From positions 704,001 to 768,000 of the forward strand of contig JBPOGI010000002.1 in assembly GCA_051251855.1 (NCBI GenBank): a stretch of DNA of 64,000 nt, given 5' to 3'. The stretch comes from Roseibacillus sp. (GTDB lineage Bacteria > Verrucomicrobiota > Verrucomicrobiia > Verrucomicrobiales > Akkermansiaceae). The notes under the pieces were generated by a model. The model saw only the letters and a list, made by a program, of their open reading frames with translations, ran no database searches and was not told the origin of the DNA. The stretch's first letter is position 1. Each line of letters begins with the position of its first letter. The translations under genes and the position numbers were made by a program. This document shows positions 6,471 to 9,921 of the stretch, in pieces.

Positions 6471-7475
6471 TTATTGGCCCATGGCGGCGGTCCAGCCAAC
6501 GGCGGTGAGTCCGACGAAGACGAAGAGTCCAATCGCTAACCAGGCGATGAACTTGGGTTTCATGATGGTGGAGTAGAGAAAGAGGAGCTTGACGTCCATC
6601 ATGGGGCCAAAGACGAGGAAGGCGAGGCGGGCTGCGGTGCGCGCGGCGGCGGGTGGGGCTAAAGTCGCAGCGATGAAGGCATCAGAAGTGCTGCAGAGGC
6701 TGAGCAAGAAGGCGAGCGCCATGAAGGCGGCGGTTTGCCCGAGGGCGGAGCCTTCCATGGATTCGAGCCATTCGGCTCCGGGGGCGATGCCGACGTTGAA
6801 GAGGGCGGTGATGATGACGCCAATGGTGAAGTATACACCTACGTCGGTGAAATCCTTGAGGGCCGCGCGCATGGAGAGGACGACACGGTTCTGTCCCTCG
6901 CTGCCGTGGTGATGATCGTCGTGCTCGTGATGATGGTCATGGTCGCAGTCTTTGTGGTCGCAGTCGTGGTGAGGGTGTTCTTTCTCCTTCTTGGTGTCCG
7001 CGGGCAGTACTTTAGGCTTGAGGATTTTGTCCATGGGAATGCGGAGGACAATGAGACCGACAAGGATGGCGGCGAGGTAGCCGAGGAGGACGCGGGAGAA
7101 GGTGAAGAACTCGGCACGCTCGGACCAGGTCTCGAAGTCGGGGAAGGCATTCCAGGTCGAGAAGATGGTGATGGGGTTCACGATGGGCGCGGCCAGCATA
7201 TAGGCGAAGGCGCAGCTCACAGGGAGGCCTTTGGCGACGAGACGACGAATGACGGGGACGACGGCGCACTCGCAAACGGGGAGAATTAAGCCGAGGAGGC
7301 CGGAGACAAGAACGGCGGCTGTCTTGTTCTTAGGGAGCATCTTTTCCATCGCTCCGGCGGGGAGGTAGACCCCGAGAAAGCCCGAGAGAAGGGTCCCAAG
7401 CAGGATAAAGGGTGCTCCTTCAAAAAGGATGGATTTGAAGGCGATGGCGAAGTTGGCGAAGTCGTCAGGGGACAC
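6471..7475 (-). CDS. Putative metal permease (DUF318/ArsP_1, YcgR-like) with His-rich loop
   Basis: E..PF...G, PVCEC..VP, AAPIVNP, LSLCSTSDAF, GPMMDVK; loop EHPHHDCDHKDCDHDHHHEHDDHHHG. Confidence 0.85.
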   Translation of the reverse strand: MSPDDFANFAIAFKSILFEGAPFILLGTLLSGFLGVYLPAGAMEKMLPKNKTAAVLVSGLLGLILPVCECAVVPVIRRLVAKGLPVSCAFAYMLAAPIVNPITIFSTWNAFPDFETWSERAEFFTFSRVLLGYLAAILVGLIVLRIPMDKILKPKVLPADTKKEKEHPHHDCDHKDCDHDHHHEHDDHHHGSEGQNRVVLSMRAALKDFTDVGVYFTIGVIITALFNVGIAPGAEWLESMEGSALGQTAAFMALAFLLSLCSTSDAFIAATLAPPAAARTAARLAFLVFGPMMDVKLLFLYSTIMKPKFIAWLAIGLFVFVGLTAVGWTAAMGQ

Positions 7476-7763
7476 GCTGAGGAGGAAACCAGAAATGAGA
7501 GTAGAAATGCGAGCAATAACGAGTGTGAGTCTTATTGGCGCGGGGTTTTAGCCATCAGGGAGAGTAGAAAGTTTCCCAGTAAATCCTCAGGAGTTGTTTT
7601 TCATGTAATTATTTTGTTTTAAGTTGGTTGCGTTCTTTTTGTTGCCTTGTTTGGGCTTTTGGGAAAGCCCTTTCGGTGACCGATCTGTGTTCAATTCTCT
7701 GGAATAGTTGCGGCAACTGACTGATGTGGTAGGTTTTGACTGTTCTTAGATGAACAAACTACA

Positions 7764-8339
7764 ATGAAACTAAAATTCGTATTTACGATGATGGCTGCTA
7801 GCGGTCTCTTCGTTGCGCCTGTTTTTGCTGACCATCATGGTGAGAAAAAGGCTGCAACAGAGGCATCAGCAGAAGGTTCAGTAGCGGCCTACGTGGTCGC
7901 TGCTTCTGGCGGCGGGTGAGGCGCTGCAGGAAAGGTCAGTTCGGCCTTGAAAAGTCAGGAAGGTGTCAAAACCGTCATTCTCTCCGGTCTCCGTGCCACA
8001 GTCATCATGGATGACGGCGCAGCTCTAGATGAAGCGAAGGTGAAAGCCGCCATCAAAGGAAAGAAGATGGAGTTCGTTTCCATGGAGAAGACCCAGATTA
8101 CTCGCCCTGTAGCGGCCTATGAGCTCGTGGTGAGCGGCGCTACATGAGCAATCAAAAATGAAAAGGCCCGTGTGGCCTTGGAAAAATTGGACGGAGTTTC
8201 CGGTGCGTTTGTGAATAACAACATCGCGCTCCACTTCTCAGAGGAAACCGAACTTGATGAGAAGCTTGTTGCTTCTGCTATCAAGGAGTTTGGAATGAAG
8301 GTGAAGAGCACCAAGAAGCTCGAAGCATTGCCATTCTAG
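7764..8339 (+). CDS. Candidate exported selenoprotein with two HMA-like repeats and two in-frame TGA (Sec) codons at 7917-7919 and 8145-8147; 191 aa if both are read through
   Basis: MKLKFVFTMMAASGLFVAPVFA-DHHG...VAAYVVAASGGG*GAAGKVSSALKSQEGV...LDEAKVKAAIK...VAAYELVVSGAT*AIKNEKARVALEKLDGV...LDEKLVASAIK...LPF-TAG; one frame throughout; SECIS-like hairpin after each TGA; terminator after the TAG. Confidence 0.8.
7932..7948 (+). promoter_or_regulatory. SECIS-like hairpin 1
   Basis: AAGGUC-AGUUC-GGCCUU; loop begins 18 nt after UGA 7917-7919; G at loop position 2 followed by U. Confidence 0.7.
8163..8179 (+). promoter_or_regulatory. SECIS-like hairpin 2
   Basis: AAGGCC-CGUGU-GGCCUU; loop begins 21 nt after UGA 8145-8147; G at loop position 2 followed by U. 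Confidence 0.7.
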
Positions 8340-8361
8340 CAGTTTCGATTCGATTAATTTT

Positions 8362-8400
8362 GAGAGGCCTGTCGCATCGTGCGGCAGGCCTTTCTTTTTT
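8362..8400 (+). terminator. Intrinsic terminator of the TGA-containing gene
   Basis: GAGAGGCCTGTCGCA-TCG-TGCGGCAGGCCTTTC followed by TTTTTT, 22 nt after TAG 8339. Confidence 0.85.
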
Positions 8401-8443
8401 GGCTCTGTCAGGTTTGGGGAGTGAGAATACGGAGTTGATGTTG

Positions 8444-8531
8444 AGGAGCTTCGACTTCAGGCGTCGAGCGTTGAGGTAAAGCATCAGTTGGGGAACCGGA
8501 CTAGTTGTGGACGACTGAAGTCGACCCTCCT
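8444..8531. repeat. REP-like inverted doublet
   Basis: AGGAGCTTCGACTTCAGGCGTC (8444-8465) vs GACGACTGAAGTCGACCCTCCT (8510-8531), 19/22 complementary. Confidence 0.65.
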
Positions 8532-8553
8532 GTTGCCGCCGCCTCGGCTCCGC

Positions 8554-9921
8554 TTACTTGATGGGATGGGATGCCGCCTTGAGGTAGGATTTGGCCTTGG
8601 CGAGAGTTTTTTGGTGTTCCTCTTTTCCTGCGAGGTTGTTTTTTTCGAACGGGTCGGCCTCAAGATTGAAGAGTTCGAGGCTTCCTCCTTTGGCTTTTTT
8701 GTAGGCTTTCCATTTTCCGAAGCGAAGTGCTTGGGAATGAAGGGCTTGCTTTCCGCCGGTGGTGAACTCGATATAAAGATACTCGTGTTCTTCCTGTTCG
8801 CCGTCTTTGGTAAGGGTGGGGAGGAAGGAGAGGCCTGTGTTTTGCTCGGGGATGGGTTGAGCGAGGATCTGAGAGAAGGTGGGGAGGAGGTCGTGAAAGC
8901 CGCTGAGGTGATGGGTGCTGCTGCCTGCTTCAATTTTTCCGGGCCAGCGAGCGAGCATGGGGGACTTGATGCCGCCTTCATGCATGTCGCGTTTGTGGCC
9001 ACGAAGTCCGCCGGTGGAGTTGAAGAAATCGGGATCATGACCGCCTTCTTTGTGGGCGCCGTTGTCGCTAGCGAACATCACGAGGGTGTTGTCGTCGATG
9101 TCGAGCTCTTCGAGCAGGGTCATGATGGCTCCAACTTCATCGTCAAGGTGCTCCATCATGGCGGCGAATCCGGCGATGGGATTGATGACGTCGGGGGTTT
9201 CGTCGAATTCACCGGCTCCATAGCGGCCGATCTTGTTGTCGAATTGAGGGAAGACTCTACGCCACTTTTCATGTAGTTCTTTAGGTGCGTGCATGGCTGC
9301 ATGGGGGATGGCAGTGGGAATATAGCAGAAGAAGGGGGCATCGGATTTGGTGCTGTTAGAAATGAAATCGCGAGCGGCCTCCATGACGATGGGGTTAAGG
9401 TAGGTCTTGCTGTCGAGCGGGATTTCTTTGCCGTTGTGGACGTAGCTGGTGGGGTAGTAGGTGTGAGCGATGAGTTGGCTCTTCCAGCCACAGAATTCGT
9501 CGAAACCGTGGGTGTGAGGGCTTTGTTTTCCAGTCTTGTTAGTGACCCCTAGTCCCCATTTTCCAAAGGCTCCTGTGCGATAGCCGGCGGCCTTGAAGAC
9601 TTCGGGGAGGACCGTGAGTTCTTCGGGGAGGGCAGCTTGGTCTTCGCCGGGGACATTGCCGCGGAGGTAGAGCTGACCTGATTCGATACCCGTCATTAGG
9701 ACGGCGCGGGAGGGGGAGCAGACGGTGTTACCTGAGTAGTGGTTGGTGAACTTCATCCCCTCGGTGGCAAGTCTGTCGATGTGAGGCGTCTCGAATTTTT
9801 CCTGTCCATAGCAGGAGAGATCACCGTAGCCGAGGTCGTCGGCGAGGATGTAGATGATGTTTGGTTTCTCAGCCGAAAAGGCGAGGGTTGGGATAACGAG
9901 TGAGAGAAGAAGGAGCTTCAT
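8554..9921 (-). CDS. Arylsulfatase (formylglycine-dependent)
   Basis: Signal peptide; KPNIIYILADDLGYGD; CSPSR; GKWGLG; SDNG. Confidence 0.92.
   Translation of the reverse strand: MKLLLLSLVIPTLAFSAEKPNIIYILADDLGYGDLSCYGQEKFETPHIDRLATEGMKFTNHYSGNTVCSPSRAVLMTGIESGQLYLRGNVPGEDQAALPEELTVLPEVFKAAGYRTGAFGKWGLGVTNKTGKQSPHTHGFDEFCGWKSQLIAHTYYPTSYVHNGKEIPLDSKTYLNPIVMEAARDFISNSTKSDAPFFCYIPTAIPHAAMHAPKELHEKWRRVFPQFDNKIGRYGAGEFDETPDVINPIAGFAAMMEHLDDEVGAIMTLLEELDIDDNTLVMFASDNGAHKEGGHDPDFFNSTGGLRGHKRDMHEGGIKSPMLARWPGKIEAGSSTHHLSGFHDLLPTFSQILAQPIPEQNTGLSFLPTLTKDGEQEEHEYLYIEFTTGGKQALHSQALRFGKWKAYKKAKGGSLELFNLEADPFEKNNLAGKEEHQKTLAKAKSYLKAASHPIK

Follow-up and report, generated by a model that had tools for sequence, protein, structure and literature searches.

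Two hairpins behind in-frame UGA codons as candidate SECIS elements of a probable tandem HMA-type selenoprotein gene in Roseibacillus

A 64,000-nucleotide stretch of DNA from Roseibacillus sp. (assembly GCA_051251855.1, contig JBPOGI010000002.1, positions 704,001 to 768,000; hereafter called the window) carries a short gene whose reading frame contains two in-frame UGA codons, and each of these codons is followed at close range by a small hairpin of almost the same sequence. This arrangement raises the question of whether the two hairpins are selenocysteine insertion sequence (SECIS) elements, which would cause UGA to be read as selenocysteine (Sec), or whether they merely reflect the amino acids encoded at these sites or the decay of a gene. 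An earlier reading of this DNA (the sequence-only reading) proposed a compact and lineage-specific SECIS that could be used to seed a search for other selenoproteins in the same genome. We conclude that both hairpins are very probably bacterial SECIS elements and that the product of the gene very probably has two Sec residues. The SECIS proposal is supported by the Sec machinery of the host, by conservation and covariation among relatives, by a genome-wide motif scan and by a Cys-containing homolog that serves as a control, and the idea that the element is peculiar to this lineage is not borne out.

The hairpins and their conservation

A single frame from the ATG at 7764 to the TAG at 8337-8339 spans both TGA codons, and its translation places Sec at positions 52 and 128 (U52 and U128; Table 1). 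Behind each TGA stands a 6-bp stem capped by a five-nucleotide loop of the form NGUNN, with the hairpins starting 12 and 15 nucleotides past UGA at sites 1 and 2, respectively. The hairpin sequences, their coordinates and both TGA codons had been reported exactly as they stand in the window, and it is also correct that the stems differ at the fifth pair only (U:G versus C:G), that loop positions 2-3 are GU in both hairpins although the encoded peptides differ (KVSSAL and KARVAL), and that 18 and 21 nucleotides separate UGA from the loop. When numbering begins with the U of UGA, the G and the U of the loop fall on nucleotides 23 and 24 in hairpin 1 and on nucleotides 26 and 27 in hairpin 2. We defined a strict motif as TGA, 9-24 nucleotides, a 6-bp stem with at most two G:U pairs and an NGTNN loop. 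In the genome, 461 of 175,662 TGA trinucleotides (0.26%) are followed by this motif, compared with 420 of 198,334 positions chosen at random (0.21%). A motif this rare is unlikely to stand by chance behind both TGA codons of one gene.

The host has the components that such elements would serve. ARAGORN finds one tRNA-Sec with the anticodon TCA in the genome that contains the window, and this is the only tRNA found with that anticodon. SelB is matched at 331 bits (cut-off 242) over model positions 2-578 of 581, SelA at 456 bits and SelD at 376 bits. The gene for SelD (locus L010, G000:C7:93121-94050, plus strand) is itself that of a selenoprotein, with one in-frame TGA in the context C-A-G-U-A-S-K. 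By its gene content, the organism can be expected to read UGA as Sec. TGA is still an ordinary stop codon in this genome, where it closes 364 of the 1,595 stop-to-stop frames with a length of 400 codons or more.

The decisive evidence for the hairpins is their conservation in relatives. When 201 genomes of the same order were searched in six frames, the gene was located in 10, including the genome of the window, and both in-frame TGA codons are present in all 10 of these family matches; two further weak matches (E about 5e-4) were rejected as family members. A scan of one genome per species, using the seven closest sequences as the query alignment, yielded 34 more loci, and all 34 of these named-genome loci have TGA at both positions. 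They come from Verrucomicrobiales-type records (Roseibacillus, Oceaniferula, Rubritalea, Akkermansiaceae), except for two bins that are labelled otherwise. Six duplicates were dropped to leave 38 distinct sequences at the species level, whose protein identity to the window copy ranges from 83% down to 26%. None of these 38 homologs is a Cys form.

The alignments around both UGA codons are gapless in all 38 homologs, such that the hairpin register is retained throughout and 228 cells can be scored for pairing at each site. Pairing holds in 91.7% of the cells at site 1 and in all 228 at site 2, and the numbers of cells with changes on both sides are 26 and 20, respectively. No shuffle among 500 at either site matched the observed paired percentage, the number of double-change cells or the covariation score. 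When the partner strand is slid by 1-3 columns, pairing is only 23-54% at site 1 and 17-67% at site 2.

The strongest point is the covariation between third codon positions at site 2, where the protein is unable to select for pairing. In one such pair, which joins a Lys codon (AAG or AAA) with an Ala codon (GCC or GCU), there are 24 G-C and 14 A-U combinations, and in the other, which joins an Ala codon (GCC or GCU) with a Val codon (GUG or GUA), there are 32 C-G and six U-A combinations; neither pair has a mismatch. On a tree computed without the hairpin peptides, these two pairs switched at least seven and at least four times, and independent pairs on supported branches agree in direction in 5/5 and 2/2 cases. 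Covariation across homologs had been named as a check of the SECIS proposal, and the 38 sequences reveal both compensatory and synonymous covariation at the stem pairs.

The loops are conserved as well. Positions 2-3 of the site-1 loop are GU in 38/38 sequences, and the codon involved is AGU for Ser (22 sequences), CGU for Arg (13) or GGU for Gly (three), and so it is always NGU despite the change of residue. All 22 serines are encoded by AGU, even though six Ser codons are possible, and all 13 arginines by CGU. The corresponding codon at site 2 is CGU in 34 sequences, CGG in two, GGU in one and AGU in one. Thus, loop position 2 is G in 38/38 sequences at both sites, and at site 2 the next base is U in 36/38 and G in the other two.

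Folding of the alignments yields the same elements. Given the region from -9 to +48 and no structural guide, RNAalifold returns precisely these two 6-bp hairpins and no further structure, with consensus energies of -7.69 kcal/mol at site 1 and -7.75 kcal/mol at site 2. The description of the element as compact is therefore apt, since only the 17-nucleotide hairpins are found. RNAfold, which had also been suggested as a check, places both hairpins in minimum free energy (MFE) or centroid structures, and the 60-nucleotide contexts fold at -13.4 and -13.1 kcal/mol.

Known SECIS elements and other Sec codons in the genome

Whether the hairpins resemble established elements can be judged against the bacterial SECIS model of bSECISearch (Zhang and Gladyshev), as summarized in PMC13188914. 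That account gives a loop of 3-9 nucleotides, an upper stem of 4-16 bp, a G in the first two loop positions that is mostly followed by G or U, a distance of 16-37 nucleotides from UGA to the loop, and an MFE no higher than -7.5 kcal/mol. Both hairpins agree with all the structural terms in this summary, namely location in the coding sequence 3' of UGA, loop, stem, G-then-U and spacing. They differ in that RNAalifold shows no conserved lower stem for the window hairpins. PMC8659212 describes the minimal SECIS of Escherichia coli fdhF as an upper stem-loop of 17 nucleotides (15-31), approximately 11 nucleotides past UGA, in which U17 is bulged and the loop carries G23 and U24. Site 1 is likewise a 17-nucleotide hairpin, covering nucleotides 16-32 from the U of UGA and with G23/U24 in its loop, and site 2 has the same hairpin one codon (3 nucleotides) later, with G26/U27. 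We presume that the E. coli loop is larger than the five-nucleotide loops found here. In sum, the two sources portray a general bacterial consensus into which the window hairpins fit, with an E. coli-like geometry at site 1, and it is on this ground that we abandon the term lineage-specific.

If the hairpin serves Sec insertion, it might be expected behind other Sec codons of the genome. We scanned for the strict motif with at least 25 open codons on each side, which returned 57 open-frame sites for TGA, compared with 29 for TAA and 24 for TAG. When the 55 other read-through frames were searched against Pfam, 47 had no domain and eight had domains that span the TGA. These eight further UGA sites lie in known or plausible selenoprotein domains (Table 1), and so the motif works as the search seed that it had been proposed to be. 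The presence of the same hairpin behind other Sec codons indicates that it is the general Sec signal of this genome. The strict rule missed SelD, whose 4-bp stem carries a GGUCU loop that starts 32 nucleotides past UGA, which is farther than in any other Sec gene of this analysis.

Three of the motif hits deserve comment in their own right. They are adjacent large FG-GAP/UnbV_ASPIC genes (loci L079-L081, G000:C6:415249-426857) on the same contig as the window, approximately 285 kb upstream. Every one of them contains a single in-frame TGA, whose surroundings (D-L-U-S-V-Y-W-R) are conserved and behind which stands a 6-bp stem closed by an NGUNN loop; two of the three also have TPR and AhpC/TSA-like regions. 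No NCBIfam selenoprotein model matches L079 or L080 at E <= 1e-5, and a selenoprotein family of this type is absent from Table 1 of PMC13188914. These genes may represent another unlisted selenoprotein family.

Table 1. Features of the two-UGA locus in the window, and strict-motif hits in selenoprotein-type frames elsewhere in the genome
Feature	Position in window	Strand	Basis or detail
Coding sequence, 191 codons plus TAG stop	7764..8339	+	Translation with TGA=U
In-frame UGA, putatively read as selenocysteine 52	7917..7919	+	TGA aligned here in 38/38 distinct homologs
Candidate SECIS hairpin 1, AAGGUC-AGUUC-GGCCUU	7932..7948	+	Stem 7932-7937 with 7943-7948, loop 7938-7942
In-frame UGA, putatively read as selenocysteine 128	8145..8147	+	TGA aligned here in 38/38 distinct homologs
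Candidate SECIS hairpin 2, AAGGCC-CGUGU-GGCCUU	8163..8179	+	Stem 8163-8168 with 8174-8179, loop 8169-8173
Terminator-like hairpin, 15 pairs plus T run, 23 nucleotides past TAG	8362..8394	+	Consensus scan, pattern match only
Formate dehydrogenase alpha (FdhA)			Motif hit; loop GGUCU, 18-nucleotide spacing as at site 1
Two thioredoxin-like proteins			Motif hits; Sec motif WUPPC
AhpC/TSA peroxiredoxin (Prx)			Motif hit; Pfam domain spans TGA
Rdx/SelW-type protein			Motif hit; motif CSKU
Three FG-GAP/UnbV_ASPIC proteins			Motif hits; Pfam domains span TGA

Cys-form control and alternative explanations

Natural Cys forms of the protein provide a further means to judge the hairpins, because the SECIS proposal could be refuted if the hairpins were kept where Cys codons replace UGA. 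A profile search of 1.84 billion representatives returned 311 proteins at E <= 0.001, of which 23 sequences were fetched. One of these (P0020) has Cys at both sites; in another (P0018), whose open reading frame (ORF) begins beyond site 1, site 2 is Cys. The metagenome collection yielded no DNA for P0018, and the DNA of the P0020 cluster, located through its member P0156 (locus L117), has TGC at both sites. This only Cys/Cys homolog with DNA lacks GU-loop hairpins, an outcome in favour of the SECIS proposal: in the register homologous to hairpin 2, only three of the six pairs form, and both downstream loops are devoid of G at positions 1 and 2. When P0020 was searched against the phylum, two weak matches were the only ones among 400 other genomes.

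Several observations weigh against the SECIS interpretation, or at least reduce the force of the evidence for it. The Cys control is a single, GC-rich and divergent sequence, and it is therefore supportive rather than conclusive. The isolated hairpins are weak: hairpin 1 alone (-5.6 kcal/mol) misses the -7.5 line of the bSECISearch model given in PMC13188914 and hairpin 2 alone (-7.6 kcal/mol) barely reaches it, so the energy term is borderline for the isolated hairpins, and the comparison varies with the span that is folded (isolated hairpin, 60-nucleotide context or consensus). Stretches of 60 and 86 nucleotides are no more stable than their dinucleotide shuffles (z = -0.38, -0.38, +0.16 and +0.36), such that single-sequence thermodynamics is uninformative either way. 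An Rfam scan of window positions 7000-9000 at E <= 10 returned no SECIS family and four chance-level hits. Both stems are continuous over 6 bp and have no counterpart of the U that bulges from the 5' arm in E. coli fdhF.

The comparative data have their own weak points. At site 1 the second-from-bottom pair is open in 11/38 sequences and the bottom pair in 6/38, and because these two pairs are often open, the conserved core at this site is 4 bp. The number of pairs with any both-side change does not exceed that in shuffles (matched by 156/500 at site 1 and 331/500 at site 2), nor does the number of further pair types (206/500 and 500/500), and no single sign test on independent pairs has adequate power (all p values being 0.06 or higher). 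Furthermore, the peptide used for the scan, [NH][DE]K[AV]RVALE, overlaps hairpin 2, and 34/38 sequences were found in this way, so that the amino-acid conservation of site 2 in these 34 loci is partly a matter of ascertainment. Synonymous positions and site 1 are unaffected by this bias, and the 10 sequences found with the whole protein agree with the larger set (98.3% of 60 cells paired at site 1 and 100% at site 2). Finally, SelB binding and Sec insertion are proposals that we make on the strength of the sequence comparisons.

Three other explanations need to be weighed against this background. The hairpins could be a by-product of protein constraint and duplication that has no RNA function, given that the shared peptide K-[A/V]-x-x-A-L can be encoded by the self-complementary AAG GCC ... 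GCC UUG. Such an origin would be in keeping with the homologous placement of the hairpins in two paralogous domains (30% identity, E 1e-4), with stem codons that encode conserved residues, with single-sequence folding energies no better than those of shuffles, and with the occurrence of GC-rich hairpins downstream of the L117 Cys codons as well. The sequence-only reading had cautioned that part of the similarity might come from the domain duplication, and this caution was justified, in that the likeness of the two hairpins is partly inherited. However, protein constraint does not account for the perfect third-position pairing at site 2 (38/38 and 38/38) through at least seven and at least four switches, for a site-1 loop codon that remains NGU across Ser, Arg and Gly, for the same type of hairpin after UGA in eight unrelated genes, or for the loss of GU loops in the Cys/Cys homolog. 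We therefore consider a pure by-product to be improbable.

It is even harder to sustain the view that the TGA codons are real stops, either in a decayed gene or between three small ORFs, with hairpins that are unrelated or attenuator-like, and with hairpin 2 perhaps serving as a minus-strand terminator. Translation table 11 indeed splits the 7764-8339 region into three ORFs of 51, 66 and 55 residues, and many of the 311 database proteins are partial, either stopping at the two Sec positions or beginning directly behind them. The consensus scan also scores hairpin 2 as terminator-like on the minus strand, where the reverse complement of 8163-8179 is joined by A-rich codons. We rejected this candidate terminator, since the T-run, which derives from plus-strand AAAAATGAA, is not conserved in homologs, and its score is probably a coincidence. 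Genuine stops are at odds with one frame that includes both TGA codons in 38 distinct sequences down to 26% identity, with an HMA fold that spans each TGA at high model confidence, and with the alignment of the TGA codons to metal-binding Cys residues of solved HMA domains. Moreover, the sole strong terminator in the scan is the one after the TAG stop, and this hairpin, downstream of both UGA codons, is likely to mark where the transcript ends. That UGA might instead be read as Trp or another standard residue is a notion to which we attach hardly any weight. Its appeal comes from database relatives, 16 of which are full-length entries with W at both positions (12 of the 23 fetched and 4/4 from a separate search). 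This W is a product of gene callers that applied a TGA=Trp code to short contigs. A Trp reading conflicts with the many long frames that end in TGA, with a full Sec machinery and a tRNA-Sec as the only TCA tRNA found, and with the metal-ligand Cys position of these codons and the existence of a Cys/Cys homolog.

Under the SECIS interpretation, SelB carrying GTP and Sec-tRNA(Sec) would bind the 17-nucleotide hairpin near each UGA through the exposed G and U of the pentaloop. It would then hand tRNA(Sec) to the A site, and UGA would be read as Sec rather than as a stop. The expected product would be an exported protein of 191 residues with two HMA-type domains, each of which would have Sec in place of the first Cys of a CxxC motif.

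The protein family and its locus

What kind of protein would make use of two such signals? An AlphaFold2 (AF2) model (predicted local distance difference test score, pLDDT, 83.8) has two beta-alpha-beta-beta-alpha-beta units at residues 39-113 and 117-185, and each Sec is located at the start of the first helix in its domain. The top Foldseek matches are the tandem HMA domains of Bacillus subtilis CopA and of ATP7B, with CopZ for the single domain, and Atx1 is also matched. Searched as a profile, the 38 sequences match 1p6t (E 1.4e-6), and Sec falls opposite the first Cys of GMTCxxC in the alignment. The residue preceding each Sec is G or T, and position +3 is neither Cys nor Sec in either domain, the window protein having U-x-x-A in domain 1 and U-x-x-K in domain 2. 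When read by eye, the N-terminal stretch of approximately 22 residues resembles a hydrophobic export leader. We infer that the protein is of an exported, tandem HMA-fold, metal-binding type.

The tandem N-terminal HMA domains of CopA (1p6t, 2rml) have the same fold and tandem arrangement (Foldseek E 1.4e-5), and CopZ (6ff2) has the same fold as one domain (TM 0.79). In contrast to CopA and CopZ, the window protein is free-standing with an N-terminal leader rather than part of a P-type ATPase, and it has Sec for the first Cys and lacks the second Cys of CxxC. The HMA motif GMxCxxC with two Cys residues is consequently not present in the window protein, which scores 17.2 bits against the Pfam HMA model (PF00403), below the gathering threshold of 24.8 bits. 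Among the 38 relatives, 16 match this model at E <= 0.01, the best at 1.2e-7.

Other HMA-type selenoproteins are known, and they share Sec at a metal-ligand position. The closest NCBIfam model is NF041115 (UxxU metal-binding selenoprotein), which is alike in its small HMA-like domain and in the placement of Sec. The window protein scores 22.8 bits against it (cut-off 95), and 33/38 family members match it weakly (best E 1.7e-7). NF041115 differs in having a UxxU motif, whereas the window protein has two tandem domains with one Sec each and no partner Cys or Sec. A MerT/CopZ fusion (NF045683) and MbdU (NF045648) also belong to this group, and MbdU is matched neither by the window protein (E <= 1) nor by any of the 38 sequences (E <= 0.01), which lack its CU motif. 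No model in NCBIfam release 20 scores above its cut-off for the family, and Table 1 of PMC13188914, which covers 119 selenoprotein families as of 2026, lists no family of tandem-HMA proteins in which each domain has one Sec. A literature search on HMA and double selenoproteins, which in part covered titles and the beginnings of abstracts, gave nothing on such a protein beyond that review. On the basis of NCBIfam release 20, that table and the literature search, we provisionally regard the family as uncatalogued.

The two domains of the protein are paralogous, and their hairpin peptides align with a one-residue gap. The second SECIS most likely arose along with the domain duplication. In this scenario, domain and SECIS would have been duplicated together with a one-codon difference in spacing, and hairpin 2 would be an evolutionary copy of hairpin 1. 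Two metagenomic relatives have related architectures: P0027 (260 residues) has three HMA-like domains and P0135 (183 residues) has two, and every one of these domains has W at the place of the first Cys in the metal-binding motif. This W most likely represents TGA. A Cys follows the W by 3-4 residues in all three P0027 domains and in the second P0135 domain. The pattern, as in the GMT-U-G..C of P0027, suggests that a Sec-HMA module has been multiplied in several architectures.

The surroundings of the gene provide few clues to its role. The divergent upstream neighbour (6471-7475, minus strand) is predicted to be a permease of the ArsP_1 type (PF03773, E 3.6e-51), and a search of the loci of 43 relatives found this adjacency to be kept only in the two closest (L025 and L027). 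We take SO_0444 to belong to the same Pfam family as this permease. PMC13188914 includes SO_0444 among its families as a selenoprotein Cu/Zn efflux transporter. Among the 34 regions compared, a FAD-oxidoreductase-like ORF flanks 16, and CTP-synthase-like and RidA-like ORFs flank 12 each; these three names come from reading the sequences by eye rather than from family-library matches. No functional partner can be inferred from neighbours in the 34 regions compared or in the 43 loci searched for the permease.

Taken as a whole, the RNA element is of a known and ordinary kind, and the gene is a new member, and probably a new family, of HMA-type selenoproteins with two Sec residues. A more detailed proposal, to which we lend slightly less than even credence, is that an uncatalogued and essentially Sec-only family of exported tandem-HMA double selenoproteins exists in marine Verrucomicrobiales. 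Each domain would present a single selenolate without a partner thiol, the domains or molecules would jointly hold a soft metal or metalloid or else form a diselenide, and the arrangement would have been created by duplication of a Sec-HMA domain together with its SECIS. If true, this would be a natural case in which a recoding signal within a coding region was copied with its domain.

There are also consequences for annotation and for the study of SECIS elements more broadly. Table 11 cuts this two-Sec gene into three, and databases store its relatives as fragments or as W forms. A 17-nucleotide motif sufficed to recover 10 Sec codons among 57 open-frame hits, and the family is an unusually clean example of a SECIS, with perfect third-position covariation within a coding helix. 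For the proteins themselves, the family could reveal how selenolate-only sites bind metals outside the cytoplasm.

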